From IMG/VR virus record IMGVR_UViG_2645727563_000003, positions 1 to 24,323 of that record: a stretch of 24,323 bases of DNA, one strand, 5' to 3'. Position numbers and translations under genes: made by a program. Positions within the stretch are counted from its first letter, which is position 1; every line of letters begins with the position of its first letter. Under the pieces are notes generated by a model. That model was not told where the DNA came from, searched no databases, and saw only the letters and a program-made list of their open reading frames with translations. Below are positions 3,795-21,080 of the stretch, one piece after another. The DNA comes from a virus (lineage: Duplodnaviria; Heunggongvirae; Uroviricota; Caudoviricetes).

Positions 3795-3835
3795 TAATGG
3801 TATGCAAAGTAACTTCTCAACCGGTCATTTGTTGC

Positions 3836-4117
3836 TTAAGAGGCATTTCTATTGAGGTGCGAATCGATAATCCTTTGTAACTTTTCAAGAATGAGCCTGT
3901 TATTGATGCTGCAAATAATAGTCACGCAATTCTGAAGACTTTCATCCATACCCTTATATTCCGCGAAATACATGCCTATAAAGCCTGCAAGTACGGCAGC
4001 AATACACTCGGCCATCAATTGCCTGCATGACGCTTCGTAACGTTTTTCACGAACCCCATTCAGAAACGAATGCACCCCGCCAAGGATGGAGAGGAGCATT
4101 ATTGTGAAATCACACAT
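3836..4117 (-). CDS. Second holin-like membrane protein, paralog of the 109-aa gene
   Basis: 93-aa ORF; AAGGA 8 nt upstream of ATG 4117. Aligns full-length with the 109-aa protein (shared LLS.IGG...FL..VR..R, AV.AG, TI.S.N, IDS.LN). Confidence 0.6.
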   Translation of the reverse strand: MCDFTIMLLSILGGVHSFLNGVREKRYEASCRQLMAECIAAVLAGFIGMYFAEYKGMDESLQNCVTIICSINNRLILEKLQRIIDSHLNRNAS

Positions 4118-4244
4118 AACTATTTCCTTAATAGTGAATTAAATATCATTGGGAAACGGTATGTACTTTGTGATTTCCACACATACTGGTTTTTGTTAAT
4201 TAAAATCCGCAGCTTGCTATAAATAACGATAGTGAGCAGAAAAT

Positions 4245-4292
4245 ATGCTAATAGGCTATGTACGCGTATCAACAAATGACCAAAACACTGCT
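4245..4292 (+). pseudogene. cin: 5' remnant of a Cin/Gin/Pin-family serine DNA invertase gene
   Basis: ATG at 4245 encodes MLIGYVRVSTNDQNTA, the characteristic invertase N-terminus; the frame then diverges and stops after 47 codons, with no catalytic domain. Confidence 0.7.
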
Positions 4293-4372
4293 TTACTCAG
4301 ACGCCACCGGAAGGAAAAATACGTATTTGCGGAGAGAATGGACAACCCGCATGGGGGGATGTTCCTCCTCCA

Positions 4373-4588
4373 ACGAAAGAAGAGCTAATGGCTATTGCAG
4401 AAGCCAGGAAATTAAGCTTAAAGGCTCAAGCGGACTCTGAAATCGCCTGGCGATAGGATGCGGTTGATGCCGGTATCGCGACGGATGAGGAAACCGCCGC
4501 GCTTTCTGAATCGAAGAAATGCCGGATCCTGCTGATGCGCGTTGATACAGCAAAACCCGTATGGCCTGTCAATCCGCAGGATATTTAA
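4373..4588 (+). pseudogene. 3' fragment of a tail fibre assembly gene (U'-like), no start, internal TAG
   Basis: Frame 2 encodes ...[64 protein letters not shown], resembling the conserved Tfa C-terminus (lambda Tfa ends ...[27 protein letters not shown], from memory). In-frame stop at 4454-4456. Confidence 0.6.
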
Positions 4589-4802
4589 CGGGGGCGTTGT
4601 AGGTGGTGACATATTCAAGCAGTTCTGTTGGATATGTCACCGTTGCTGCATCTCGCTCTACGTTAAATGTATCCGCTCCCCAGATAACACACTCCCTCAA
4701 AAATGCCTCCACCTCTGGCGAGACTTCAACCGCATCATCAGGTCGCTCTTGTTCAGAAACATAAAAACCAACGGTCGTTGGGCTGAAATACATATTCTCC
4801 AT
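4569..4802 (-). CDS. Truncated tail fibre assembly protein (U-like), N-terminal 77 aa only
   Basis: ATG 2 nt after the fibre stop. [15 protein letters not shown]... is Tfa-like; the ORF ends inside the antisense of the opposite-strand tfa fragment, so 3' ends overlap by 20 bp. Confidence 0.5.
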
Positions 4803-4804
4803 AT

Positions 4805-7800
4805 TTAGTATCCTATTGCTTCAAAATGCAAAGTCGGAATTTCGCCGAGATTGGGTGTCGTATACGACACAGTGAATCGCGTTCTTGATACGTCAGTGCC
4901 AGAATCAGTATCGCGATGCGTTGCCAGTGATTTCCCAGCCATTGATGACTGGGTCGAAAAGCTGTAACTCGCTAGTGTTGCCAGCGTTGCTATTTGTGCA
5001 TTTGGGAATTGTCTGGGGAAATTAACCCTGTAGTAATGGGTGTAGTACGTCACCCCACCAAGCACCTGCGCGTTGAAGTTACCAACTGGTGTCAGTGTCA
5101 CAGTGCCAACCTGTCGAATCATACCATTTGGGAGAATATCCCAGGCAGTTTGTCCGTTTCGCGACATACCAAATGCGGACATGTCCGGGAGTTGATTATT
5201 ACCGGTTCCGACATCCCGTTTTGCCGCTTCTCCCAATTGAAGGTATGCGAGAAGACCAGCAACATCCTTTCCACTCAAATTAGTCAGCGTATTGTCCAGC
5301 GGTTGTTTGCCCGCCAGTGCGCTCTGTACTTCGCTTTTGCTGTAGGCATCCAGATCTTTAGGCGTAAGCGTAATATCCTTCGTGCCGTCAAACGGAACGC
5401 CGTTGATATTCCGTGCAGTCTGTAGTTTTGTGGCAGTTGCAGCATTACCAGTGGTGTTCTGATTACCCGTAGTGTTTACACCTGGAAGATTAATATTGGC
5501 GGAGCCATCGAATGACACGCCGCCTATTGTGCGTGCTGTTTGCAGTTTTGTTGCAGTTGCAGCATTGCCAGTAGTGTTCTGATTACCAGTTGTATTCACA
5601 CCAGGGATGCTGTCTTTTTTAGTATATATCTGAGCCCAGCCCTCTTCGAACCCATAGCCATCACGTGATGAACGGTAATACAATCCACCATTTTTATGGT
5701 GCGCTCGGATTTGGAGAGTCCGACAACTACCTACGCCTGTATAAAAATTTGCAACGATATAAGAATCCCCGGAGCGTGTAACATTATACGCACCTGATTC
5801 GGCATTCCACGGGACCGCACCACTAGTATCGGCATAAGTTCCAGTAGCGCGTAGAGCAAAAGCAGATACATTTTCAGCTGTTAGTGTTATATCAGCAGAA
5901 CCATCAAAAGACACGCCGCTTATTTTTCTAGCAGTTTGCAACTTCGTAGCCGTTGAAGCATTGCCGTTCAAACTACCATTGATGCCGCCAGTAACATCGA
6001 GCCCATTACCGATCGTAACAGCTCCATTGGCATTGTTAATGATAAGCGGCCTTAACCTATTATAGGTTCCCAGGCTGTTACCCGAATCGGTCAACATGAA
6101 ATATGTGTTTGAGCCATCGTTTCGGATAAAGAATCCATAGTTGCCATAGGCAATGCGCAGACCATTCCCCGATTTTGAAATGATCTCACCAGTAGCCGTT
6201 AAACCGCCGTTGAGATTTCCTCCGGTTATTGGTAATGCGCCGACATCCGTGGCGGTCGGTTTAATGTGCGAACTGTAAATGACATATACCGTTCCATCAG
6301 TAAGACCAGTTGGTTTATTCGCTGTATAAGTTGGTGATGTATGAATCGTTACGCTGGCGTTACTGGTATAATCCCATTGAATATTTACACCAGTCGCATA
6401 ATTTCCGATTGCAACGTAAATATCGTAAGTATCACCAGATGTATTGACCCAGGCAAAATTTGTAAACCCTGTCGATGTGCGCTGCCATAAAGCACCAGTA
6501 ATCCCCTTCGGATTACCATTACCTGCACGCAAAACAAGTTCAGATATACCTGCCTGTTGAGGTGACCCCACGTTAAATCCCGCGCCACCAATCAACGTAA
6601 TTGAAACAACAGAACTCGCCTGTGGCATGGTTACCGTTGCTAATTTGAACCAACCAGCACCACCGCTGAATGACATTGTTGTTGAGTTGATCGTGCCTAT
6701 AGACCTTGGAGTTAGCTCAATGTTTTTAGAACCGTCAAACAATACCCCATTTATAGTTCTAGCGGTTTGTAACTTGGTCGCTGTAGCCGCGTTACCGGAT
6801 GTATTCTGATTACCCGCAACGTTAACACCAGGTAAATTAATATTCGCAGTACCATCAAAGCTAACTCCGCCGATAGTTCTTGCCGTCTGTAGTTTTGTAG
6901 CGGTTGCTGCATTGCCAGTTGTATTCTGATTGCCAGTGGCATTCACACCAGGAATGGAGTCCCTTGATGTATATACCTGCGCCCACGCTGACCATGCCGC
7001 ATCAGTGTTATCTCTTCGGGAGCGAATGAAAACCGGCGCATGTGCACCGCTCGTACCACTCCAGCCAATAAGCAACTCGCCCTCACCAGCAGCACTCGCA
7101 CCTTTCATGTGCAATACGTTGCCATACGTGGTCGGGTAGCTATTGTTGTACGCCTCGTACATTTGAATGCCAGCAGTACCCTGAGTAGAGCCACTTAACG
7201 CCGTTACGCGCCCGCGTGATACCAACGTATTGATATTAACGTCCCCTGAACCATCAAATTTAACACCGTTGATGTTTCTTGCCGTCGCAAGTTTTGTCGC
7301 GGTAGCAGCATTCCCGGTGGTGTTCTGGTTACCTGTTGTATTTACACCTGGAAGGTTGATATTGGCCGAGCCATCAAATGCCACACCGCCAATCGTGCGT
7401 GCTGTTTTCAATTTCGTCGCGGTGTCGGCGTTCCCTGTCAGTGCCCCGGTGATCCCGCCGTTGAAAGTCTGGCGTGCACTCCATGTGTTAGCCGTACTCA
7501 ACAGGGGGATCTTTTCACCGCTGGTACCGAGTTCTCTTAAACCAAGGTATTGGATAACGGCCAGTGTGCTTGTTTTAGCCAGAATATCGCGACCGACTGA
7601 CGTTAAATCAGTCTGCGCTACCGTATCCTTACCAGTGAAATAAGGCAGTTTGTTTGCACCAGTCGCAAGGGCAGCGAGCGCGGTTAAAGTTGCATCCAGA
7701 GGCTGTTTGCCTGCCAGCGCATTTGTCATTGTTGTCGCAAAGTTCGGGTCATTGCCCAGTGCTGCTGCAAGCTCATTCAGGGTATCAAGAGCTTCAGGTG

Positions 7801-8905
7801 ATGAGCCGACCAATGCAGAGATAGCAGCTCTTACATAAGCGGTCGTAGCAATCTGCGTGTTATTCGTACCCTGTGCAGCGGTAGGCGCAGTAGGTATTCC
7901 CGTTAATGCAGGACTTGCTAAAGGAGCTTTAAGAGCCAGAGCATTGTTGATAGTTGTGCTGAAATTCGGGTCGTTATTGATCGCAGCCGCTATTTCTTTA
8001 AGCGTATCCAGTGTGCCAGGTGCACCGTTGATAAGTGCCGTTATAGCTGCCTTAACAAAGGCTGTATTTGCGATCTGCGTGCTGTTTGTACCTTGCGCTG
8101 CCGTCGGCGCGGTTGGCGTTCCTGTCAGACTCGGGCTTTCTATTGGCGCTTTGGTATCAGCCAGCTCTTTTACAGACTTAACGGCTTTAGGGGTAGCCGC
8201 CATTGTTTCGCTGTCGCTGTTAGTTGCGCTACTGAGCTGAACTAATCCCTTTTGTGTTGTGCTTGCATCCTGCGCCGTATACTTGCTTTTAGCCAGATCG
8301 TAGGCTTTTTTAACCGCCAGCGAACTTGCAGCGACATCACTTCTGGTACTGGTTACAGAGTCGGAAATTTCAATGCCTATCGCGAGATCGATGCGGTCGG
8401 ATACATCTATCATTTCCTTAGTAATAGCAGATACGCCAGCAGGGATATTCACCGTACAAACAAGCAGTTCCCCATCTCCTAACTGATATGAATCGGTATA
8501 GGTTCTGGCAACAAATTCAGCCGCATGAATATGTGACGCGGTATTAACCTGATAAGAATCTTCTCCAAGGAGGTATCTTCCCTTCAGCACAATTGCATAT
8601 TTCTTACCTGCGCTAAGTGCAAGAGAAATATCCTTACGCTGCTGAATAGTTACCTGGTAGAATTCACCAATATTCACTGACGCCGCGCCAGCGGTTTTAT
8701 CACCATCCACTGAGGTGATTAACAGGTTCATCCCACCGCCAGGCTTAGGAAAAAAACCGGCATAAAATCCAGGGTCAACAATTCCCCTGAATTTTCGGTT
8801 TAGCGCGGCTGACAGATATGGTTCGTGGTATTGCACATCAGCCACCAGAGCCAACGACTCGGGTGATGGGTAAGTAACCGATGTGACAACTGTAACGTCA
8901 TTCAT
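4805..8905 (-). CDS. Tail fibre protein (S-like) with collagen-like repeats
   Basis: Start chosen at ATG 8905 (MNDVTVVTSVTYPSPE...), AAGGA 10 nt upstream, 11 nt after upstream stop; the longest ORF extends to 8992 but overlaps the upstream gene. At least seven ~40-aa repeats (PGVNTTGNQNTTGNAATATKLQTARTIGGVSFDGSANINL) and two ~75-aa N-terminal modules. Confidence 0.8.
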   Translation of the reverse strand: MNDVTVVTSVTYPSPESLALVADVQYHEPYLSAALNRKFRGIVDPGFYAGFFPKPGGGMNLLITSVDGDKTAGAASVNIGEFYQVTIQQRKDISLALSAGKKYAIVLKGRYLLGEDSYQVNTASHIHAAEFVARTYTDSYQLGDGELLVCTVNIPAGVSAITKEMIDVSDRIDLAIGIEISDSVTSTRSDVAASSLAVKKAYDLAKSKYTAQDASTTQKGLVQLSSATNSDSETMAATPKAVKSVKELADTKAPIESPSLTGTPTAPTAAQGTNSTQIANTAFVKAAITALINGAPGTLDTLKEIAAAINNDPNFSTTINNALALKAPLASPALTGIPTAPTAAQGTNNTQIATTAYVRAAISALVGSSPEALDTLNELAAALGNDPNFATTMTNALAGKQPLDATLTALAALATGANKLPYFTGKDTVAQTDLTSVGRDILAKTSTLAVIQYLGLRELGTSGEKIPLLSTANTWSARQTFNGGITGALTGNADTATKLKTARTIGGVAFDGSANINLPGVNTTGNQNTTGNAATATKLATARNINGVKFDGSGDVNINTLVSRGRVTALSGSTQGTAGIQMYEAYNNSYPTTYGNVLHMKGASAAGEGELLIGWSGTSGAHAPVFIRSRRDNTDAAWSAWAQVYTSRDSIPGVNATGNQNTTGNAATATKLQTARTIGGVSFDGTANINLPGVNVAGNQNTSGNAATATKLQTARTINGVLFDGSKNIELTPRSIGTINSTTMSFSGGAGWFKLATVTMPQASSVVSITLIGGAGFNVGSPQQAGISELVLRAGNGNPKGITGALWQRTSTGFTNFAWVNTSGDTYDIYVAIGNYATGVNIQWDYTSNASVTIHTSPTYTANKPTGLTDGTVYVIYSSHIKPTATDVGALPITGGNLNGGLTATGEIISKSGNGLRIAYGNYGFFIRNDGSNTYFMLTDSGNSLGTYNRLRPLIINNANGAVTIGNGLDVTGGINGSLNGNASTATKLQTARKISGVSFDGSADITLTAENVSAFALRATGTYADTSGAVPWNAESGAYNVTRSGDSYIVANFYTGVGSCRTLQIRAHHKNGGLYYRSSRDGYGFEEGWAQIYTKKDSIPGVNTTGNQNTTGNAATATKLQTARTIGGVSFDGSANINLPGVNTTGNQNTTGNAATATKLQTARNINGVPFDGTKDITLTPKDLDAYSKSEVQSALAGKQPLDNTLTNLSGKDVAGLLAYLQLGEAAKRDVGTGNNQLPDMSAFGMSRNGQTAWDILPNGMIRQVGTVTLTPVGNFNAQVLGGVTYYTHYYRVNFPRQFPNAQIATLATLASYSFSTQSSMAGKSLATHRDTDSGTDVSRTRFTVSYTTPNLGEIPTLHFEAIGY
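5425..7375 (-). repeat. Interspersed near-identical 120-240 bp coding repeats inside the tail fibre gene
   Basis: Copies at about 5425-5665, 5935-6025, 6715-6955 and 7255-7375 encode the 40-aa repeat; they also generate the long spurious plus-strand ORFs here. Confidence 0.7.
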
Positions 8906-8916
8906 CAAGCATATCC

Positions 8917-9351
8917 TTATGCTGTAGTCGTGTTTATGGCCATAACTGCGGTATATGTTTTGCCCACATACAGCGAGTCTTCCTGGACACAAATAATGGC
9001 GATTGGCTTGTTCTCGTTATCCAGAACAACCAGAGTGTTGAATGGGTAGTTTTTCCCTTTCTGCAACTGGCTTTGATCAAGGTCCATTCGGACAGTAATT
9101 ATCCCGCCTGAGTAGGTTGGGACGAGGTTGATGGTGCAAAATTTACTGGTCAGTTCTGCCAGCTCGAAAGCCTTTGGCAGTTCTCCAATCTCATAAGTGC
9201 CATCTCCTTTCTTAGTAACCAGTGAACTGGTACCGAAAACGGCCTTGCTGATTAAAAATCGAGAGCCTTTGTTAATGGACGATTCAGCGCGCCGCTGATA
9301 GTAATAGTCCAACAACTGACTCTTATAGAGGTTTGTTGAGACGTCAGACAT
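8917..9351 (-). CDS. Tail/baseplate-associated protein (R position by synteny)
   Basis: 144-aa ORF directly upstream of the fibre gene in the same operon; no motif recognised. Confidence 0.55.
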   Translation of the reverse strand: MSDVSTNLYKSQLLDYYYQRRAESSINKGSRFLISKAVFGTSSLVTKKGDGTYEIGELPKAFELAELTSKFCTINLVPTYSGGIITVRMDLDQSQLQKGKNYPFNTLVVLDNENKPIAIICVQEDSLYVGKTYTAVMAINTTTA

Positions 9352-11699: not shown

Positions 11700-12055
11700 A
11701 GCACCACGTCCTGTGTGATAGTTATATCCCTGATACGAATGGATATTTTCAACTTATCAAAAGCATCTCCCTCGGCTACTGACAAGCCAGAAATCGGTAT
11801 GTCGGGTAAATCTACCGTCAGTTTTTGCAAAAGCATTGCCTCAACCGCAATTTGAACATGCGACAAGTTGGTCGGTTCGTGTTTAAACTGCGGTAAAACA
11901 TTGCCCCATGACGGATCTCCGTATACCTCACCCTGATAAGTGTTTAGCCACTCATATAAACGAGCGCCCCAGGCCTCCTCCTGGGACTCATACGTTTTTA
12001 CGCCGGATAACTCCAGCGTCAGCAAAGGATCAATTTCGTTATTGTTGGCCATCAA
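11696..12055 (-). CDS. Small baseplate/morphogenesis protein (PmgA position by synteny)
   Basis: 119-aa ORF, 4-nt overlap with the tape measure gene stop. Confidence 0.55.
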   Translation of the reverse strand: MMANNNEIDPLLTLELSGVKTYESQEEAWGARLYEWLNTYQGEVYGDPSWGNVLPQFKHEPTNLSHVQIAVEAMLLQKLTVDLPDIPISGLSVAEGDAFDKLKISIRIRDITITQDVVL

Positions 12056-15000
12056 TCAACTCTCGCGTAGTCATTCATCAACGGATCATCAATTGACAGT
12101 GGCACCGTGCGCATAACGCCCGGTTGAGGCGTGCTGACCTTTACGACAGTTCCCTGGCCTTTCGCCGAGTCTTTAGTGTGCTCTTCAATCCTGGCAAGCA
12201 ATGAGGTCATCTGCGCAAACAGCCGCTTCGTTTCACCATCAAGTGAAACGGTATTATCAGCCAACTGCATTGTCGGCTTGGCACCGGAGCCGCCAAGGTC
12301 ACTAATAACCTGTCCGTCTATCTGCATACGACCGGTTGGTTGCTGCAAATCGTTGGCGGCAGTCGTCACCTGGGACGTGGAGGCTGGTTCAGGCGCATTA
12401 TTTTTCCGCATCCCCGGCGAGTTGCGGAGTTTATCAAATAGTCCATCAATCCCCATTTGTGCGCCGAGTTGGTCAAAGTAACTTGAATTGCTGGCCACCG
12501 GACGTGCCTCTTCAACTGGCATAGGTGTATCAACATACACATTGCCAGCTGCCGTTGCGGTCCCCTTCCCTCGTGCACGTTCTTCGAGCGTTCCCTGAAC
12601 GACTTCCCGACGCATACCCCGGCCATTCATGAATTTGTTGACCAGATCATTCACCCCCGTAAGTTCACCAATCCGGTCTACTAATCCCCCTTTTTCAAAC
12701 GGATTTTCGCCAGGGGTAAACGCCAGGCCCGTAGACTGATCAACAAAGGCGTTTTCCGGAAGGTTATCCATTCTAGGGGATTGGCTGCCTTGTTGCTGTC
12801 TTTGTTGCTGTCTCCCCCCTTGTGAACCCGCCCCGGGGGTATAAATATCACCACCTAAATAGCGAGCACGATGAGTATTGACCTTAATCGCATACTCGCG
12901 GTTTTCCTTCGATAATTCACCGGTGCCTTTTTTCCACTTATTAATAGTGCCAAACCCGGCGTTATATGCAGTGATGGCCTCGTTCCAATCTCCCTTTGCT
13001 TGTTTCAAATAATTGCTCATGAGAAGAGCAGCAGCTTCTGCCGATTTTTCTGGATTAAAAGAATCTTCCCGAGATAATCCAGTTTCCTTACGGGCAATGT
13101 CCGTAAACTGAAACATCCCGAGCGCACCACCACTCTTTTTCCCATTAACCCATCTTAACTGGGATACTGCATTTGGATTACCATTTGATTCAGTGGCTGC
13201 TATCGCATAAAGAGTACCTTCAGGAAGGCCATACTTTTTCTCAAGTTCAGCAAAATATGGAGCCAACTTATCGAGATTTGCCTTACCTTCAGCGCCAAGA
13301 CTTCCGACTTTTACATCCAAGTTGCCATTGTTGTAGGTATCCGCAGCTTTCTGAATGTCATTCCTGGTGCCAGTGGTATTAAGCGACGATGATGACGAGC
13401 TATTTTGACCAATAGCTTTATCAATTTTCTGCAACGCGCTATTGCCCGTTTCTACGGCATTTGCATTGATTATCTGATTGGCAGTTTCTTTAACTGTTTT
13501 ATTGCTATCTTTCGCCGTATCTAGGGATGCATTTACAACACGAGTGACAATATTAGCCTTTTTAGAGGTATATTCAGTCTTAGGAGCATTGTCCTCCTGA
13601 CGTTCTTTAGCAGGTGTTTTTAATTCAGGTGTAACCTCTTTCGCATCCGCTTTATTGACTAGCTTTGATGCAACCCAGGCCACTGGGGTGCTCTGAACAG
13701 CGGCATCTGCAACCTCACCTGAAAGCTCTTTTGCGGCACTCCATAGATTACTGCCAGCTTCTTTAATGTATTTCCCTGGGTTCTTAATGAAATCAATTGC
13801 ACTATCAATTGCATCACTGAAAACCTGTTTCAGGTTATCGACAGTAAAGAAGTCTTTGATGGCGTCTAATTTTTCGTTCAGACTCTTGGTTGTGTCACTG
13901 AACCAGGCTGAAATAGCATCGCCAATCTTGGCTGTGTAATCGTTGAATGTTGTGGATATGGTGTCACCAAGGTTAGAAATATATGTTTCTAAGTTGGTAA
14001 TCCCACTATCAATGGCCTGAGCAATACTTTCCGTCGAAAATGATTGCAACATATTGCCGATATCCTCAAATCCAAGTGATTTGAGAACCTCACCAATGGC
14101 GCTGCTAATACCAGATACCAGTCCCCCCATATCGAGAACGTTAGCCAGTGTATAAGCCGCTTTTTGCTGAAAAGATGGATCTTCCCCATCCTTAAGCCCA
14201 AAGGTCCGACGTTGTGCTTCTGTATCATTCCAACCGGTTACCGCATCATAGATACCTCCAGCCACCGTGCCGACTAGCGGAATTGCGCGTAAAGCCCCCT
14301 TTGCAAGAGCCTTAACACCTAGTTTCCCCAATCCCTTAGTTGCAAGTTTTCCGGCACCGCGAGTAGCCAATTCGCCAGCTTCTTTGGCAGCAGCTTTTTT
14401 CCCACCAAAGCCCAATAAGCTTGCAACTTTTTTTATACCTAAAGCGCCTAGTGCCATCGAGCCAACTTTCTTTAGTACCCCACGGCCAAAAATAAGGGAA
14501 GCAATACCACCGGCCCCCTTCCCTAACAGGCTAAATAGTTTGGACAGCAAGCCGCCCTTCTTTTTCCCGGTGTTTTTGGCTATCTGATCAAGGGCGCTGA
14601 GAATCTTGTCATTGCCCTCTTTAATTTCGCTGGTCTGCTCCTGAAGTTCCTGAACCGTCCGTTTTTGGGTGTTAACCTGAACGACATCGGCACTATTTTG
14701 CGATTTACGCCTAAAAAAACCTTTTCTACGGCTGTTATCGTCATTGCCACGAATCACATCGGCAATAGACTTTCTGGCACCATTAAGCGATCCACCAACT
14801 TCTTTTGATATCCCGCCAAGCTCCTTCCCTGCTGCCCACAATGGACCAGCAACGGCATAACCTAACGCATCGACGGCACGAGTCTCTGAAGGGTTACCTA
14901 TGCCTTCAGCTACTTTTGACAGTTTTTTTAATAAACCTGATTCAGCATTTAGACGCTCATCATCCTCTTTGCGCCTGGCCTTTTCAGCACGTTCAGCACG

Positions 15001-15801
15001 GGCATCTTCCGCTGCGGCCTTACTCCCTGACTTTCCAATAAAACGACCACGCGCATCGCGTTGGTTTTGGCTTTTTTGCGCACCGCCTTTTTGATCGAAC
15101 ATTTCGCGAGCGTGTTCGGCTGCTTCGGTCCGTTGTGCCTTTATATCCTCTGGTATAGCCTTCCTGCGTCGTTTTTTACCCTTTGGTGTAGTTGATTTGG
15201 CCTGCTGTTCCTGTTGAGCAATGCCCTCCTGAACTACACGAGAAACGTCCCCTAAATTAAGCCGTTTCATTGCGTCAACAATAGGGTCTACTGATGGCGC
15301 ATTGGCCACAAAGTCTGGCCGGGAATTTTCGATTGTTCGATTTAATGCCGACACACTGCGAGATACTGGGTCAACCGTTGCAACGCGTTCCCCTTTCAAA
15401 TCACGAGCGAGTTTGACCGTTTCTAACCGCTGTGCTTTAACATCCTCTGTTATTGCCTCTCTTCGTCTATTTGGGGGATTGTGCGCTGTTGGTGCAGCCT
15501 GCTGTGCACGGTTAGTGACTTTGTCCTCCCGTATACGAGAAACGTCCCCTAAATTAAGCCGTTTTATTGCGTCAACAATAGGGTCCACTGATGGCGCATT
15601 GGTCACAAAGTCAGGACGTGAATTTTCGATTGTGCGATTTAATGCCGACACACTGCGAGAGACAGGATCAACAGTTGCAACTCGTTCCCCTTTCAAATCT
15701 TCAACAGCTTCCCGAATACCTGCAAGCTCTTCCAGCTCTTTCGCGCTGGCGGTTTCAACTGTCCTTATAACATCGTCAATATTGGCGTTTTTTCTTTCCA
15801 T
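12052..15801 (-). CDS. sit: Tape measure protein with lytic transglycosylase (SLT) domain, Sit-like
   Basis: 1249-aa ORF. Gly/Ala/Lys-rich hydrophobic block typical of tape measures; SLT-like motif LPEGTLYAIAATESNGNPNAVS...GALGMFQF; internal ~99-aa tandem duplication near the N-terminus. Confidence 0.75.
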   Translation of the reverse strand: MERKNANIDDVIRTVETASAKELEELAGIREAVEDLKGERVATVDPVSRSVSALNRTIENSRPDFVTNAPSVDPIVDAIKRLNLGDVSRIREDKVTNRAQQAAPTAHNPPNRRREAITEDVKAQRLETVKLARDLKGERVATVDPVSRSVSALNRTIENSRPDFVANAPSVDPIVDAMKRLNLGDVSRVVQEGIAQQEQQAKSTTPKGKKRRRKAIPEDIKAQRTEAAEHAREMFDQKGGAQKSQNQRDARGRFIGKSGSKAAAEDARAERAEKARRKEDDERLNAESGLLKKLSKVAEGIGNPSETRAVDALGYAVAGPLWAAGKELGGISKEVGGSLNGARKSIADVIRGNDDNSRRKGFFRRKSQNSADVVQVNTQKRTVQELQEQTSEIKEGNDKILSALDQIAKNTGKKKGGLLSKLFSLLGKGAGGIASLIFGRGVLKKVGSMALGALGIKKVASLLGFGGKKAAAKEAGELATRGAGKLATKGLGKLGVKALAKGALRAIPLVGTVAGGIYDAVTGWNDTEAQRRTFGLKDGEDPSFQQKAAYTLANVLDMGGLVSGISSAIGEVLKSLGFEDIGNMLQSFSTESIAQAIDSGITNLETYISNLGDTISTTFNDYTAKIGDAISAWFSDTTKSLNEKLDAIKDFFTVDNLKQVFSDAIDSAIDFIKNPGKYIKEAGSNLWSAAKELSGEVADAAVQSTPVAWVASKLVNKADAKEVTPELKTPAKERQEDNAPKTEYTSKKANIVTRVVNASLDTAKDSNKTVKETANQIINANAVETGNSALQKIDKAIGQNSSSSSSLNTTGTRNDIQKAADTYNNGNLDVKVGSLGAEGKANLDKLAPYFAELEKKYGLPEGTLYAIAATESNGNPNAVSQLRWVNGKKSGGALGMFQFTDIARKETGLSREDSFNPEKSAEAAALLMSNYLKQAKGDWNEAITAYNAGFGTINKWKKGTGELSKENREYAIKVNTHRARYLGGDIYTPGAGSQGGRQQQRQQQGSQSPRMDNLPENAFVDQSTGLAFTPGENPFEKGGLVDRIGELTGVNDLVNKFMNGRGMRREVVQGTLEERARGKGTATAAGNVYVDTPMPVEEARPVASNSSYFDQLGAQMGIDGLFDKLRNSPGMRKNNAPEPASTSQVTTAANDLQQPTGRMQIDGQVISDLGGSGAKPTMQLADNTVSLDGETKRLFAQMTSLLARIEEHTKDSAKGQGTVVKVSTPQPGVMRTVPLSIDDPLMNDYARVD
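15232..15707 (-). repeat. Tandem direct duplication (297-bp period) inside the tape measure gene
   Basis: Two ~165-180-bp copies starting near 15232 and 15529, by eye well over 90% identical, both encoding LKGERVATVDPVSRSVSALNRTIENSRPDFV.NAPSVDPIVDA.KRLNLGDVSR. Confidence 0.8.
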
Positions 15802-18047: not shown

Positions 18048-18587
18048 CTACCACCAACTGCTAGCTTTCTTCTCTCTAGCTTTTCCTTCGCTTTGCAGTA
18101 AATCTTTACTTCCTGTAGAAATATTTCTATTTGCATCAGCCTCAGACTGAATTACATCTGTCTTAGCTGCTCTCTCCTTCAACTCCTGCTCTATAAAATC
18201 GTTTTCTCGCTGGACACGAGCCGCTTTTGCTTGCAGTTCGAGTTTCATGCTTTCGAGTTGCAGCTTGCGAAGCTCATCCTCATAAGCTTGATCTCGCTTC
18301 TTGTCATTTGCTAGCTCGGCTTCTCGTTTCGCTCTACGTTCATTTTCTGCAGCAACACGCTGTTTTTCGCGTGCAGCAGCGGCAGATGCTGCTTTTTCTC
18401 TTCTAATACGTTCAGCTTGTGCTTGTTGGCGAATAAGTTCTTTTCTGGCATCCTCAGCTTGCTGCTCTTTAGCTCGCCCTTCATTTTCCGCTTGAGCAAT
18501 AGCAGCAATTTGACTTTGCAACGAGTTAGCCAAGGCAGTGCCTACACTAAACGTAGAAAAGATTAGAAATAAAATAATTTTATTCAT
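18048..18587 (-). CDS. Secreted, highly charged coiled-coil protein (TolA-like repeat character)
   Basis: 179-aa ORF; signal peptide MNKIILFLIFSTFSVGTALA then Ala/Glu/Lys/Arg/Gln-rich helix. Visibly lower GC than the tail genes. Confidence 0.65.
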   Translation of the reverse strand: MNKIILFLIFSTFSVGTALANSLQSQIAAIAQAENEGRAKEQQAEDARKELIRQQAQAERIRREKAASAAAAREKQRVAAENERRAKREAELANDKKRDQAYEDELRKLQLESMKLELQAKAARVQRENDFIEQELKERAAKTDVIQSEADANRNISTGSKDLLQSEGKAREKKASSWW

Positions 18588-18590
18588 AAA

Positions 18591-19112
18591 TTATTTCTTT
18601 TCTGGACAAGTAGCATTTGGCTGAATTCGAGTTTCATTATCTTTAGTTGAAATAAGCACAGCAAGCCCCGTTGTAAACTGGCATGCTTTACCAACTTGAG
18701 TTGAAGTGAACACCTTAGTTCCTTCTTTATAAGTCAGTGAAACACCTTCAACAATTGTTTTATCACTAACCAAAGAACCAGCCGCTGCACCAAGAGCCGC
18801 ACCACCAGTACCGCCAGCTACAGCACCCAGTGTCGATGTGCCTTTAACATTATAACCGGCAACGCCCCCAGCAACAGCTCCCAGTACCGCACCAAATGTC
18901 TGTGCCGCTTCTTTATTAGCTTTATTATCAACTTTCACTTTAGCTGGAAGCACAGAGATAATATTGACTGTCTTTGTTTCCTGCTTCGAATTCAATTGAG
19001 CGGTATCATAAACATCGGCAGCATAATCAGCACCGCTAGATTGACACCCAGAAAGAAGAATTGCAGATACAACAAGAGCGCATAAAGTATACTTTTTAGA
19101 CATAAGAATCAT
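18591..19112 (-). CDS. Lipoprotein with glycine-zipper motif
   Basis: 173-aa ORF; lipobox LSGC after a hydrophobic leader, then GAVLGAVAGGVAGY...GAVAGGTGGAALGAAAGS. Start may be the ATG at 19103 instead. Low GC. Confidence 0.65.
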   Translation of the reverse strand: MILMSKKYTLCALVVSAILLSGCQSSGADYAADVYDTAQLNSKQETKTVNIISVLPAKVKVDNKANKEAAQTFGAVLGAVAGGVAGYNVKGTSTLGAVAGGTGGAALGAAAGSLVSDKTIVEGVSLTYKEGTKVFTSTQVGKACQFTTGLAVLISTKDNETRIQPNATCPEKK

Positions 19113-19393: not shown

Positions 19394-19410
19394 TCTGCTC
19401 TAATAAATTT
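19394..19410 (+). promoter_or_regulatory. C1-type repressor operator candidate upstream of the c4/icd/ant unit
   Basis: tctgctctaataaattt matches the recalled P1 C1 operator consensus ATTGCTCTAATAAATTT at 15/17. Confidence 0.55.
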
Positions 19411-19448
19411 GTATTTTTAAGTCGCGAATGCTATCTTTTTGCATCATA

Positions 19449-19477
19449 TTGACCTTTTAATCGTTCAGGCTTATAGT
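19449..19477 (+). promoter_or_regulatory. Sigma70-like promoter candidate for the c4/icd/ant transcript
   Basis: TTGACC (19449-19454), 17-bp spacer, TATAGT (19472-19477), in an AT-rich intergenic region. Confidence 0.4.
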
Positions 19478-19589
19478 TTCGCCGTCGTAGCAAATTCTGC
19501 GACCGGGTTTAGCAGCCTGAATGATTGTGCGGACAGCCGCAGATATCCGATATTGCGGTATTTTTGTGTCCGTAAAACCGCGTTACGCC

Positions 19590-19700
19590 CAAATTATGGT
19601 GGGGCGTGATGGGGAGGCTTCGGCCTGCTGGTTTCACAATCGCCAGTCTGCTAACCCCGTCACGTCCTGCCACCTGTTTAGCAGCGGGTAGCAGGTTGTT
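19590..19700 (+). ncRNA. c4: Candidate c4-like antisense regulatory RNA in the ant leader
   Basis: About 450 nt of GC-rich non-coding leader with stem-loops; ctgctaa (19648-19654) is complementary to gtttagcagc, present at 19487-19496 and 19677-19686. Boundaries approximate. Confidence 0.35.
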
Positions 19701-19724
19701 AAACCTGATTGTGAGGCCGTAACT

Positions 19725-19946
19725 ATGGTTAATGCCAATCCTTGCGCACGCCAAGAATTCATCTGGCGTTTCTATTCCTGCAAAAAACACCACTATCACT
19801 TCGTCATCGCAGCAACAGAAGACGAAGCACGCTCTCAATTGCCTGATGGCCCCTGCATTTTTACTGCCCGTTTTTCAACTAACTCGCGCAATTCACTTAG
19901 TTACTGGAACCTCCCCTTCTCTGCCGACGTTCAGGGGGTTTTATGA
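19725..19946 (+). CDS. icd: Small ORF translationally coupled to ant1 (icd-like position)
   Basis: 73-aa ORF, GAGG about 9 nt upstream; its TGA overlaps the ant1 ATG (ATGA at 19943-19946). Identity by position only. Confidence 0.4.
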   Translation: MVNANPCARQEFIWRFYSCKKHHYHFVIAATEDEARSQLPDGPCIFTARFSTNSRNSLSYWNLPFSADVQGVL

Positions 19947-20986
19947 AAAAACCTCTCGTCACCCGTAATGACATAGCCGAAGCGATCGCCCTGCATACTG
20001 CCTGTATGCCGACACGGGAGATCCCCGGCGCAATTGCCAACTATTTCATGATAACCAGACGTTTTTATACCCGAACAGATAAGGCTGTGATCAACAGGCT
20101 ACTGATAGCCGAGATCAGGGATTATTTGATTGAACAAGGACGTCTACGTTACGCAACGGTGGCAGCAGAAATGAGAAAGGAGGCACATAGAATGACCAGT
20201 AATAATTTGAATGTTAAAAAACCAGCATCTGTTGCTTCAGCTACGCCATCACCAGCTGTGAATGTTATCTCCAACACTGGAGACACAATCGACAGCCAGA
20301 CGCTGTTAAAGATGGTCAATGAAGCGCGTAAGTTATGTGGGGAACCAGAGGTTCGGAACAACAAATTCATCAAAAAAATACTCGACGAATTAGAAGGTGA
20401 GGACGGTTACACAAAAAGTGCAACCGTGCCGCCAGGTGGCGGTACGCCTATGGTTGTCATAACCATGACCTACAAACAAGCCCTGCGAGTCGCCGCGCGC
20501 GAGTCAAAAGCAGTCCGCCGTTCGCTGATCGACAAACTGGAAGAATTGCAGCAGGCAAACTCCCCTGCCCCATCGATCCCCCAAACATTACCAGACGCTC
20601 TACGCCTGGCTGCCGAGTTGGCAGAACAGAAAATGCAGTTGGAACAACAGCTGGTGGCCGCAGCCCCTAAAGTCGATTTTGCCGACCGGGTATCAGCGGC
20701 TAATGGAATCCTGATCGGGAACTTTGCAAAGGTCGTTGGACTTAAGCAAAACGCCCTTTTCTCATGGTTGCGCCAGAACGGCATTCTCATGGCTTTTGGT
20801 GCGCGCAAAAACGTACCGCGCCAGCAGTACATTAACGCCGGGTATTTCACGGTGAAAGAAGTGGTGCTGGATGATGAAAATGGCTACCAGATACGGCTGA
20901 CGCCCCAATTAACGGGTAAAGGCCAGCAGTGGTTAACTCGCAAGCTACTTGATGCTGGTTTGTTAAAACCAGTAGCAATAGGTTAA
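19943..20986 (+). CDS. ant1: Antirepressor Ant1 (long form) with KilA-C/ANT-type C-terminal domain
   Basis: 347-aa ORF; the C-terminal ~125 aa are ~65% identical to the C-terminus of the next gene (ALRLAAELAEQK...TGKGQQWL...LLDAG). Confidence 0.7.
   Translation: MKKPLVTRNDIAEAIALHTACMPTREIPGAIANYFMITRRFYTRTDKAVINRLLIAEIRDYLIEQGRLRYATVAAEMRKEAHRMTSNNLNVKKPASVASATPSPAVNVISNTGDTIDSQTLLKMVNEARKLCGEPEVRNNKFIKKILDELEGEDGYTKSATVPPGGGTPMVVITMTYKQALRVAARESKAVRRSLIDKLEELQQANSPAPSIPQTLPDALRLAAELAEQKMQLEQQLVAAAPKVDFADRVSAANGILIGNFAKVVGLKQNALFSWLRQNGILMAFGARKNVPRQQYINAGYFTVKEVVLDDENGYQIRLTPQLTGKGQQWLTRKLLDAGLLKPVAIG
20192..20986 (+). CDS. ant2: Antirepressor Ant2 (in-frame internal start within ant1)
   Basis: In-frame ATG at 20192 preceded by AAGGAGG (20177-20183) with 8-nt spacer; would give a 264-aa product starting MTSNNLNVKK. 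Confidence 0.5.
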   Translation: MTSNNLNVKKPASVASATPSPAVNVISNTGDTIDSQTLLKMVNEARKLCGEPEVRNNKFIKKILDELEGEDGYTKSATVPPGGGTPMVVITMTYKQALRVAARESKAVRRSLIDKLEELQQANSPAPSIPQTLPDALRLAAELAEQKMQLEQQLVAAAPKVDFADRVSAANGILIGNFAKVVGLKQNALFSWLRQNGILMAFGARKNVPRQQYINAGYFTVKEVVLDDENGYQIRLTPQLTGKGQQWLTRKLLDAGLLKPVAIG

Positions 20987-21063: not shown

Positions 21064-21080
21064 TTTGCTCTAATAAATTT
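21064..21080 (+). promoter_or_regulatory. C1-type repressor operator candidate upstream of kilA/repL
   Basis: tttgctctaataaattt matches the recalled consensus at 16/17; about 23 of the 27 bp from the core onward are shared with the copy at 19396. Confidence 0.6.

Follow-up and report, generated by a model that had tools for sequence, protein, structure and literature searches.

A probable P7-type c4 antisense-RNA immunity locus in the immI operon leader of a P1-like plasmid prophage

It has been reported that the heteroimmunity of the phages P1 and P7 rests on C4, an antisense RNA of 77 nt that acts in trans and represses ant (PMC12197685, PMC8198154 and PMC8546580, citing Citron & Schuster 1990/1992). 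It is also reported that this RNA is produced by processing (PMC8546580, citing Citron & Schuster 1992) and its precursor is a substrate of RNase P (PMC2190699, citing Hartmann et al. 1995). Processing and trans-repression of C4 are taken here from these parts of the P1/P7 literature (PMC12197685, PMC8546580, PMC2190699), while the present analysis deals with the sequence elements, their fold, complementarity and its covariation, the assignment to a specificity type and the gene context. Like C4, the CI RNA of the satellite phage P4, with its seqA/seqC sites, is an antisense RNA that is processed from an untranslated leader and shuts off downstream genes in the lysogen, and it pairs with two complementary stretches of the transcript that contains it, located upstream and downstream of the RNA; unlike C4, it causes transcription termination and not occlusion of a ribosome-binding site (all as given in PMC4825925), and it belongs to a different sequence family, as the only Rfam families matched by the DNA described below are C4, c4-a1b1 and isrK. 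The sar RNA of P22 is also a small antisense RNA limiting ant translation in a temperate phage, although sar is a cis-antisense transcript from the opposite strand, whereas C4 lies on the same strand as its target and uses two short loop elements (PMC12197685). The IsrK/STnc1160/orf45-anrP region of the Salmonella prophage Gifsy-1 has the same order of parts as the P1/P7 locus, namely a promoter, an a1/b1-type hairpin leader with a terminator, a C4-type processed RNA of about 80 nt and an antirepressor gene that is likewise reached by translational coupling (PMC4825925). It differs in that there is no separate icd, orf45 being read by the authors through the C4-type RNA, and in regulatory sign, with activation by the short RNA in Gifsy-1 and repression by C4 in P1/P7; the Gifsy-1 study makes no connection to P1 c4 (PMC4825925).

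The DNA analysed here, referred to as the window, is a 24,323-nt stretch of a virus record (IMG/VR IMGVR_UViG_2645727563_000003, Caudoviricetes). A previous sequence-only reading had proposed that a c4-type antisense RNA is processed from the leader upstream of ant and pairs with sites on the transcript from which it stems, and this proposal is supported by the Rfam C4 and c4-a1b1 matches, the P7/P1 annotation, the covariation in 66/66 leaders and the Icd and KilAC open reading frames. The region is almost certainly a P7-type c4 antisense-RNA immunity locus, that is, the leader of the immI operon in a P1-like plasmid prophage (Punavirus), and nothing in the sequence evidence speaks against the c4 identification. 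RNA folding and a covariance-model search for c4 returned a C4-shaped fold and a match to Rfam C4 (RF01695) at 19592-19677 that covers the full model (1-87) and scores 69.6 bits, above the gathering cut-off of 45, and c4-a1b1 (RF03163) was matched with 54.6 bits (cut-off 46.7). In the window, only C4, c4-a1b1 and isrK scored meaningfully, all other Rfam families, including riboswitches and cis-regulatory leaders, having E values of at least 0.16 and scores far below their cut-offs. The covariance-model score, the fold, the a2/b2 complementarity, the upstream a1/b1 elements and the icd-antirepressor operon context are together those of the C4 family. The individual features are collected in Table 1.

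Table 1. Features of the c4 locus, with positions in the window and the evidence for each assignment
Feature	Position	Strand	Evidence and remarks
C1 repressor operator Op(c4), formerly Op51, TCTGCTCTAATAAATTT	19394..19410	+	2 mismatches to consensus ATTGCTCTAATAAATTT; identical to annotated P7 Op(c4)
Upstream promoter, counterpart of P1 P2c4/P51a; -35 at 19408-14, -10 at 19432-37	19408..19437	+	P1 annotation via alignment, homology only
Promoter, counterpart of P1 P1c4/P51b; TTGACC, 17-nt spacer, TATAGT	19449..19477	+	promoter scan 10/12; coincides with annotated P1 promoter
5' leader with a1 and b1	19484..19565	+	full-length, sub-threshold isrK match; c4-a1b1 RF03163 at 19471-19523
a1 target TTAGCAG (P7 type), in loop of hairpin 19504-19519	19509..19515	+	pairs 7/7 with a' in 66/66 leaders
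b1 target GATTGTG (P7 type)	19523..19529	+	pairs 7/7 with b' in 66/66 leaders
Mature C4 antisense RNA, 77 nt	19598..19674	+	ends from P7/P1 annotation; P7 misc_RNA c4 maps here; Rfam C4, 69.6 bits
b' element CACAATC, 9-nt loop of second internal C4 hairpin	19635..19641	+	sequence, fold, covariation
a' element CTGCTAA, 7-nt unpaired C4 junction	19648..19654	+	sequence, fold, covariation
a2 target TTAGCAG, loop of small hairpin CCUG/CGGG (19673-19688)	19678..19684	+	P1/P7 annotation mapping, covariation
'anti-a' segment CAGGUUGUUAAACCUG, function putative	19692..19707	+	self-complementary; with G.U pairs also complementary to a1 hairpin 19504-19519 and a2
b2 target GATTGTGA (19707-14), overlapping icd Shine-Dalgarno GAGG (19713-16)	19707..19716	+	pairs 7/7 with b'
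icd, 73 aa; stop overlaps ant1 start (ATGA)	19725..19946	+	NF033153 phage_ICD_like, 52.7 bits
ant1 antirepressor, 347 aa	19943..20986	+	PF03374 KilAC domain, E = 5e-31; P7 annotation
ant2	in-frame internal start at 20192 within ant1	+	P7 ant1/ant2 annotation

The closest relative of the locus is P7 (AF503408), which shares all six recognition elements, the C4 scaffold, the operator and both promoters, with an identity of 99.2% over 531 nt (19430-19960) as compared to 94.7% for P1. The curated P7/P1 features Op(c4), P51a/b, a1, b1, c4, a2, b2, icd and ant1/2 map base for base onto the window, C1 operator-like sites are found at 19394 and 21064, and the gene order is that of P7, with upf50.0 and upf50.5 followed by c4, icd, ant1/2, kilA and repL. 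The window departs from P7 by five substitutions, all outside the recognition elements. Three lie in the promoter region (19424, 19440 and 19479), one is synonymous (19781) and one alters Icd (19939, G72V). The cleavage-site sequence and the ACC that follows the C4 stem on its 3' side are identical to P7. The two sequences further differ by a 127-nt diverged stretch inside ant1, and the window, which is mosaic, is without the cin invertase and C-segment that P7 possesses. The variants at 19440 and 19479 recur identically in other loci.

P1 (AF234172) has the same architecture, scaffold and mechanism, but every one of the elements a1, b1, b', a', a2 and b2 differs from that of the window at two bases (P1 types TTGACAG and GTTAGTG), always in a compensated manner, and its upstream neighbours are the sim genes in place of the upf50.0/upf50.5 of the window and P7. 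With a elements of TTAGCAG/CTGCTAA and b elements of GATTGTG/CACAATC, all six elements match P7 and differ from P1, so that the specificity predicted from them is that of P7 immunity and not that of P1. Since the locus is identical to P7 in every working part, the sequence-only reading was right in its main claim and the feature is an ordinary one; it was already known, and the finding as given brings no new biology.

The observations on which the earlier proposal was built stand, some of them with small corrections of position. The 10-mer GTTTAGCAGC, noted as a repeat, is indeed present in exactly two copies in the 24.3-kb window, at 19507 and 19676 and not at 19487 and 19677 (the first position was off by 20), and because it is expected only 0.06 times and two copies appeared in 0/100 dinucleotide shuffles, this repeat is not explained by chance. 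The complementary CTGCTAA had been placed exactly, at 19648. The neighbouring pairing was likewise correctly recognized, CCCCGTCAC at 19655 pairing with GTGATGGGG as part of the 17-bp closing stem of C4, except that GTGATGGGG starts at 19606 and not at 19607. The antisense/target triad described on this basis is present as triad a (a1, a', a2), but a second and equally good one, triad b (b1, b' and, at 19707-13 next to the icd Shine-Dalgarno, b2), had been missed; its 8-mer TGATTGTG lies at 19522 and 19706, with CACAATC at 19635. With an expected count of 1.05, TGATTGTG alone is not rarer than chance, and triad b is accepted as real because of its covariation and not because of the rarity of this word. 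The leader is GC-rich as stated (53.5% G+C in 19484-19724 versus 31% in the upstream intergenic DNA), a strong structure is predicted over its whole length (z = -5.8), and the 73-aa frame said to be coupled to ant is icd, which overlaps the next open reading frame by ATGA. The term 'RNA switch' is loosely worded, since C4 represses as an antisense RNA in trans and does not sense a ligand as a riboswitch would.

The 77-nt C4 has a minimum free energy of -44.9 kcal/mol (z = -5.7 against 200 shuffles) and adopts the shape demanded by the family, that is, a long closing stem (17 bp) with two internal hairpins, in which exactly CUGCUAA (19648-54, 3' junction) and UUCACAAUC (19633-41, hairpin loop) are unpaired. 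The duplex energy of the whole leader with the whole C4 (-55.8 kcal/mol, shuffles giving -41 +/- 5.8) carries no information, since every internal helix is opened in computing it. The scaffold showed no covariation of its own within the P1-like set, as its helices are invariant there, and its structure is supported by the Rfam model and by distant homologs.

The recognition elements, on the other hand, could be compared across 66 distinct leaders drawn from 125 loci. The collection was searched with an invariant 30-mer, which gave 119 loci; the pattern GGCCTGCTGGTTTCNNNNNNNGCCAGTCTGNNAACC gave none, as it has seven free positions between GGTTTC and GCCAGT versus six in the sequence. In the 66 leaders, a1:a', b1:b', a':a2 and b':b2 were paired in 100% of 924 cells, with 217 double-sided changes and a score that was reached by 0/500 shuffles, while slid controls gave 27-52%, and no copy lacked compensation at any of the three sites. 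In the leader alignment, the a2 hairpin shows one-sided U-to-C changes that leave its stem paired. Two a-types and six b-types were recognized among the distinct leaders, and 11 of the 12 possible combinations were seen, the combination in the window (P7 type) being the commonest of the 11 with 29/125 copies. Such combinatorial diversity of the elements together with a frozen scaffold reads as the signature of selection for trans-recognition specificity. Pairing between cognate elements is calculated at -8.5 kcal/mol for a and -11.8 kcal/mol for b, and pairing with P1-type partners at about -3 and -5. Contigs with 2-4 modules carry differing types in all 15 within-contig pairs, although the chance probability of this outcome, from the type frequencies, is about 0.13 and it is thus not significant. 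In more divergent C4 loci, taken from weak DNA matches, the two-triad layout is kept with unrelated element sequences and compensated stems. A search for Icd in species-representative genomes yielded only four loci, all but one of them close relatives, and tblastn of Icd against phages found P1/D6-like records only.

Based on these elements and on what is described for P1 and P7, transcription would start from the C1-controlled promoters at about 19408-19477 and proceed through a1/b1, c4, a2/b2, icd and ant1/2, and C4 would be cut out of the operon transcript, its 5' end being generated by RNase P. The folded RNA, a long stem, would display b' (CACAAUC) as part of a hairpin loop and a' (CUGCUAA) as part of a junction, and in trans it would pair through b' with b2 and through a' with a2 just upstream of icd, masking the icd Shine-Dalgarno sequence. 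With icd untranslated, the coupled ant1 would remain untranslated as well and transcription would terminate early inside icd. Rho-dependent termination within icd was reportedly described by Biere et al. in 1992, and loading of Rho would fit the C-rich, G-poor composition of the gene (C 0.30, G 0.18). In the absence of the Ant antirepressor, C1 repression would hold, and with it lysogeny and superinfection immunity. As specificity would be determined by the element sequences, the C4 of the window should repress P7-type but not P1-type targets.

One further reading extends this c4 explanation and does not replace it. The a1/b1 leader may be the P1/P7 counterpart of IsrK: its first 82 nt or so (19484-19565) would be set free as a short RNA through partial termination at a hairpin and U-run, and this RNA would pair with the a'/b' elements of C4, both in trans and, in the read-through transcript, in cis, and would act as a decoy or activator for icd/ant; this suggestion is tentative, and we regard it as somewhat more likely to be wrong than right. 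The leader matches isrK (RF01394) over its full length (1-77/77) with 43.7 bits and E = 2.6e-8, a score that is nonetheless below the Rfam gathering cut-off of 50 and hence short of family membership, and above-cut-off isrK matches lie directly 5' of C4 in distant C4 loci. Three hairpins can be distinguished in the leader, one at its 5' end (19484-19503), that of a1 (19504-19519) and one that resembles a terminator (19536-19559, dG = -8.9 kcal/mol) and runs into the U-run UAUUUUUGUGU, although this third hairpin was not flagged by a simple terminator scan and has a larger loop than the IsrK consensus. As in IsrK-type RNAs, the middle hairpin is complementary to a downstream processed RNA (a1:a' 7/7, covarying), and the perfect covariation of a1/b1 with a'/b' in 66/66 leaders implies that pairing between the leader and C4 is under selection.

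In Gifsy-1, the short IsrK stops at its own terminator and the read-through product is the antirepressor mRNA, anrP translation rises 139-fold when IsrK is supplied in trans, and a helix with the pairs G28:C162 and G31:C159 has been proven by compensatory mutations (PMC4825925). When the Gifsy-1 sequence was rebuilt from the primer table of that paper (nt 95-134 and 146-190 only), this helix corresponded to a1 (UUGGCG) pairing with a' (CGCCAA) of a C4 homolog, and the start AUG of 'orf45' coincided with the 5' end of that homolog. The under-induction of icd and ant1 in a P1vir-infected hfq mutant is only a hint in the same direction, IsrK being described by Rfam as Hfq-binding. On the other hand, a short leader RNA is putative in P1/P7, the authors of the IsrK study take their results to mean that an ORF is activated structurally and not that a repressor RNA is titrated (PMC4825925), and the primary P1 papers may already give a1/b1 a role; no statement connecting the a1/b1 leader with IsrK turned up in the searched literature. 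If this reading holds, immI would be a three-RNA circuit composed of a decoy/activator, an antisense repressor and a target, IsrK/STnc1160 and c4 would be one family under two names, the a1/b1 elements, which are only 'putative' in the P1 genome annotation, would gain a function, and the Gifsy-1 'orf45' would be the 5' part of a C4-type RNA.

It could also be argued that the leader is a purely cis-acting structured attenuator, producing no trans RNA, in which the repeats form alternative intramolecular helices. This would accommodate the strong structure of the leader as a whole, the cis a1:a' pairing demonstrated in the Gifsy-1 homolog (PMC4825925) and a long-range helix of 16 bp formed by the a1 hairpin (19504-19519) with 19692-19707, which has a pair probability of at least 0.98 in the full leader and a duplex energy of -23.8 kcal/mol. 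The helix is paired in 95.1% of cells across the 66 leaders, but its covariation there does not rise above shuffles and 19692-19707 also forms a self-complementary hairpin, and for these reasons it was set aside as a part of the mechanism; D6-type loci retain only half of the helix and distant loci none of it. Trans action and heteroimmunity are reported for the near-identical P1/P7 elements (PMC12197685 and PMC8546580), and the combinatorial diversification of the elements on a frozen scaffold counts against an action purely in cis, as do, at their non-significant level (about 0.13 by chance), the always differing types on multi-module contigs (15/15 pairs), so that we consider an attenuator of this kind very improbable. 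Equally improbable is the view that the plasmid prophage is decaying and the locus no longer active, which the mosaic window without the P7 cin invertase and C-segment might suggest. The operator and the two promoters, the six elements and the genes icd, ant1/ant2, kilA and repL are all intact, with 97-100% identity to their counterparts in functional phages. That the leader encodes a small c4 repressor protein (the 56-aa ORF at 19521-19691), for which it can be said that c4 was first annotated as a protein (record X15639 has 'c4: CDS') and that this ATG-initiated ORF runs across C4 in the window and in P7, is rejected as hardly conceivable because the frame is not kept across the 66 leaders, about one third of which have a 1-nt indel that breaks it, while several contain stop codons and others have lost the ATG, and in addition the ORF has no Pfam match and the variation of the leader is compensatory at the RNA level.

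The locus is thus best regarded as a P7-type c4 locus, and this assignment is of practical use. Related phage-plasmids often carry resistance genes in E. coli and Salmonella, and the type allows a prediction of which of them are able to superinfect or share a host with the present one and which are not. The modular code, with at least two a-types and six b-types on a frozen scaffold, represents a natural set of orthogonal RNA repressor-target pairs, and the homology between the a1/b1 leader and IsrK joins two literatures and makes the function of a1/b1 directly testable. The recognition code and the IsrK link may be worth more than the finding itself.

The element is the already-known c4/immI locus, in its P7 specificity type, and the finding is real. 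Exactly two matches above curated Rfam cut-offs were obtained in a whole-window scan, namely the C4 antisense RNA (19592-19677, 69.6 bits, cut-off 45) and the 'a1, b1 targets of C4 antisense RNA' (19471-19523, 54.6 bits, cut-off 46.7). Over 531 bases surrounding the finding, identity to phage P7 is 99.2% and to phage P1 94.7%; taken as a whole, the window represents a P1-like plasmid prophage of mosaic make-up. The curated order in P7 and P1 is C1 operator, promoters P51a and P51b, a1, b1, the 77-nt c4 RNA, a2, b2, icd, ant1 and ant2, and every feature was mapped onto the window through a three-way alignment with both phages, and Icd and Ant1 are confirmed by NCBIfam NF033153 and Pfam PF03374, respectively. 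The c4-type antisense RNA proposed by the sequence-only reading was therefore right, supported as it is by the Rfam C4 match, the annotation transfer from P7 and P1 and the covariation in 66 distinct homologous leaders. RNA folding agrees with it: the 77-nt RNA folded alone reaches -44.9 kcal/mol (z = -5.7) and leaves precisely the a' junction (7 nt) and the loop that holds b' unpaired. A protein product of c4 is excluded, because the 56-codon ORF at 19521-19691 is frameshifted, stop-interrupted or start-less in many homologs.

Features of the c4/immI locus in window coordinates, all but the last row transferred by three-way alignment with P7 and P1
Feature	Position	Remark
C1 operator	19394-19410	
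Promoter TTGACC-17-TATAGT	19449-19477	also detected by promoter scan
a1	19509-15	
b1	19523-29	
C4	19598-19674	
b'	19635-41	
a'	19648-54	
a2	19678-84	
b2	19707-14	
icd	19725-19946	
ant1	19943-20986	
ant2	from 20192	
Second C1 operator-like site TTTGCTCTAATAAATTT	21064-21080	1 mismatch; ahead of kilA/repL; corresponds to Op(rep)/Op53

The motifs on which the earlier proposal was built are present, with some corrections of position. The repeat GTTTAGCAGC has two copies, the only ones in the window (chance mean 0.06; two copies in 0 of 100 shuffles), which start at 19507 and 19676 rather than at 19487, a 20-base slip, and 19677, off by one; CTGCTAA lies at 19648 as had been read, CCCCGTCAC is found at 19655, and GTGATGGGG begins at 19606 instead of 19607. 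The pairing suggested between the latter two belongs to the C4 closing stem. Of the target/antisense arrangement, triad a (a1, a', a2) had been recognised, while triad b (b1, b', b2) had been overlooked. The leader is GC-rich as described, at 53.5% G+C versus 31% in the A+T-rich intergenic DNA upstream, and the 73-codon frame (19725-19946), whose stop overlaps the next start codon in ATGA, is indeed the sole conserved ORF ahead of the antirepressor gene.

The complementarity between C4 and its targets is maintained by selection. The homologs comprised 10 diverged plasmid copies, phage D6 and 119 viral contigs chosen by a shared invariant 30-mer of the C4 scaffold, yielding 125 complete leaders and 66 distinct sequences, in which two a-types (TTAGCAG, TTGACAG) and six b-types (GATTGTG, GTTAGTG, GTACATG, ACGAATG, ACTTACG, ACTTGTG) combine in 11 of 12 possible ways. 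Throughout, a' is complementary at 7/7 positions to both a1 and a2, as is b' to b1 and b2. Pair counts agree for both pairing sets (C4 with a1/b1 and C4 with a2/b2): 100% of 924 cells are paired, with double-sided changes at 8 pairs (217 cells); the covariation score was attained by 0 of 500 shuffles, and controls slid by 1-3 columns were 27-52% paired. The scaffold helices of C4 and leader showed no variation among the 66 leaders, and a frozen scaffold with varied elements is the pattern expected under selection that diversifies recognition while keeping the fold. Distant C4 loci (the second D6 module, lambdoid Stx phages, mEp460, the ST64B type and a Klebsiella plasmid) share this arrangement, b2 again lying against the Shine-Dalgarno sequence, and have unrelated element sequences and compensatory changes in the C4 stems.

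Among the collected loci, six viral contigs of ~42-103 kb carry 2-4 c4 modules each (L029/L063/L109/L130; L026/L086/L113; L077/L102/L131; L066/L074; L108/L120; L115/L119), and no two modules on one contig share both their a-type and their b-type, some differing in just one of the two, a pattern that is not significant (estimated P about 0.13). Another locus, L135, lies on a 2.9-kb contig (JAFAFU010000019.1) of a 'Bacillota bacterium' MAG with immI ~95% and Icd 97% identical to the window, the likeliest explanation being mis-binning of a P1-like enterobacterial fragment.

With regard to specificity, all six recognition elements are the same in P7 as in the window, whereas P1 has a two-base difference in each of the six, all compensated. 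Predicted cognate duplexes reach -8.5 (a) and -11.8 (b) kcal/mol, versus about -3 (a) and -5 (b) kcal/mol with P1-type partners. At this locus the window differs from P7 only at 19424, 19440, 19479, 19781 (synonymous) and 19939 (Icd G72V), all five outside the recognition elements. The change at 19939, G-to-T relative to both P7 and P1, also extends the T-run behind a weak hairpin just upstream of the ant1 start (19917-19946), a stretch marked by the terminator scan, though at chance-expected frequency.

Before processing, the leader is predicted to form a 16-bp helix, with a probability of at least 0.98, between the a1 hairpin (19504-19519) and CAGGUUGUUAAACCUG (19692-19707), which lies between a2 and b2. 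Once C4 has been excised, the predicted partner of this self-complementary segment is a2, in a 10-bp helix. Two of its U residues, facing the variable purines of a, take both a-types by G.U wobble. The long-range helix is 95% paired across the 66 leaders, in which its covariation was not above that of shuffles, and D6-type loci retain it only in part while distant ones lack it; the data are compatible with a putative function for it.

The upstream elements a1 and b1 are labelled 'putative' targets in the P1 record, and since they covary perfectly with a' and b', their pairing with C4 is under selection. In distant loci the stretch directly upstream of C4 matches Rfam isrK above the cut-off; under permissive thresholds, the window leader at 19484-19565 matches the full model with 43.7 bits (E = 2.6e-8), below the cut-off of 50, in four parts: a 5' hairpin, the a1 hairpin, b1, and a hairpin (dG -8.9 kcal/mol) followed by UAUUUUUGUGU. 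In Gifsy-1, it has been shown that the short IsrK RNA stops at its own terminator, that the antirepressor mRNA arises by read-through past it, that the central part of IsrK base-pairs, both in cis and in trans, with a sequence downstream (pairs G28:C162 and G31:C159 proven by compensatory mutations), that IsrK in trans raises antirepressor translation 139-fold, and that STnc1160, a processed RNA of ~80 nt downstream of IsrK, 'shares complementary sequences' with it (PMC4825925). Nucleotides 95-134 and 146-190 of Gifsy-1 were rebuilt from the mutagenesis primers in that paper, in agreement with every base numbered there, and the rebuilt sequence is a C4 homolog: G114:C175 is a pair in the C4 closing stem, C159-A164 (CGCCAA) is a' and IsrK U26-G31 (UUGGCG) is a1. 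The C4 homolog has a UUAUGG motif at its 5' end, whose AUG is AUG107 of 'orf45', the frame running on through the C4-type RNA; the counterpart motif in the window spans the annotated C4 5' end at 19598. The counterparts are therefore IsrK and the a1/b1 leader, STnc1160 and C4, and the proven helix and a1:a'. P1 c4 is not mentioned in PMC4825925, and no paper linking it with IsrK was found in the literature searched, which did not extend to primary P1 papers. By analogy, the window leader might release a short RNA counteracting C4, a tentative and somewhat doubtful suggestion given a sub-threshold isrK score and a putative terminator. The isrK and C4 matches adjoin in many lambdoid, ST64B-type and D6-type phages (loci L138-L141, L143), in whose records C4 is often annotated inside an antirepressor or Rha CDS. 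Further study might be worthwhile only for the modular specificity code and for the equivalence with IsrK.

Elsewhere in the window (3820-7400), the cin invertase and invertible C-segment of P7 have essentially no counterpart, with only two short ~86% stretches matching, and the S tail-fibre ORF (4805-8992, minus strand) forms one frame of 1395 aa whose C-terminal part differs; the tail fibre therefore appears fixed and non-switching. About 127 nt inside ant1/ant2 (20338-20465) have no blastn match to P7 between flanks 98% identical, and may be a variable spot in Ant; another P1-like plasmid has a 126-bp gap at the ant1/2 position (PMC6906374). The middle of the sit gene (Sit transglycosylase; 12741-14507) is 86-88% identical to P7 and gapped, the ORF (12052-15801) encoding 1249 aa versus 1130 aa in P7. 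Upstream of the c4 promoter (18048-19112, minus strand) lie genes for a DUF5384 protein and a lipoprotein with a weak TraT-like match, which are upf50.0 and upf50.5 of P7, where P1 instead carries the sim superimmunity genes.

Both b2 and a2 are complementary to C4 elements and cover the icd ribosome-binding site. The icd gene is C-rich and G-poor (C 0.30, G 0.18) and coupled to ant1 through the ATGA, and Biere et al. in 1992 are said to have described Rho-dependent termination before ant when icd is untranslated. According to PMC12197685, PMC8198154 and PMC8546580, C4 is a 77-nt trans-acting RNA produced by processing, which represses Ant synthesis and explains the heteroimmunity of P1 and P7; its precursor is described as an RNase P substrate in PMC2190699, and antagonism of the C1 repressor by Ant is documented in the literature. 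In the proposed mechanism, C4 from the prophage's own leader would bind a2/b2 and leave icd untranslated, whereupon ant would be neither translated nor fully transcribed. The outcome would be that lysogeny is kept, together with immunity to P7-type, not P1-type, superinfecting genomes.
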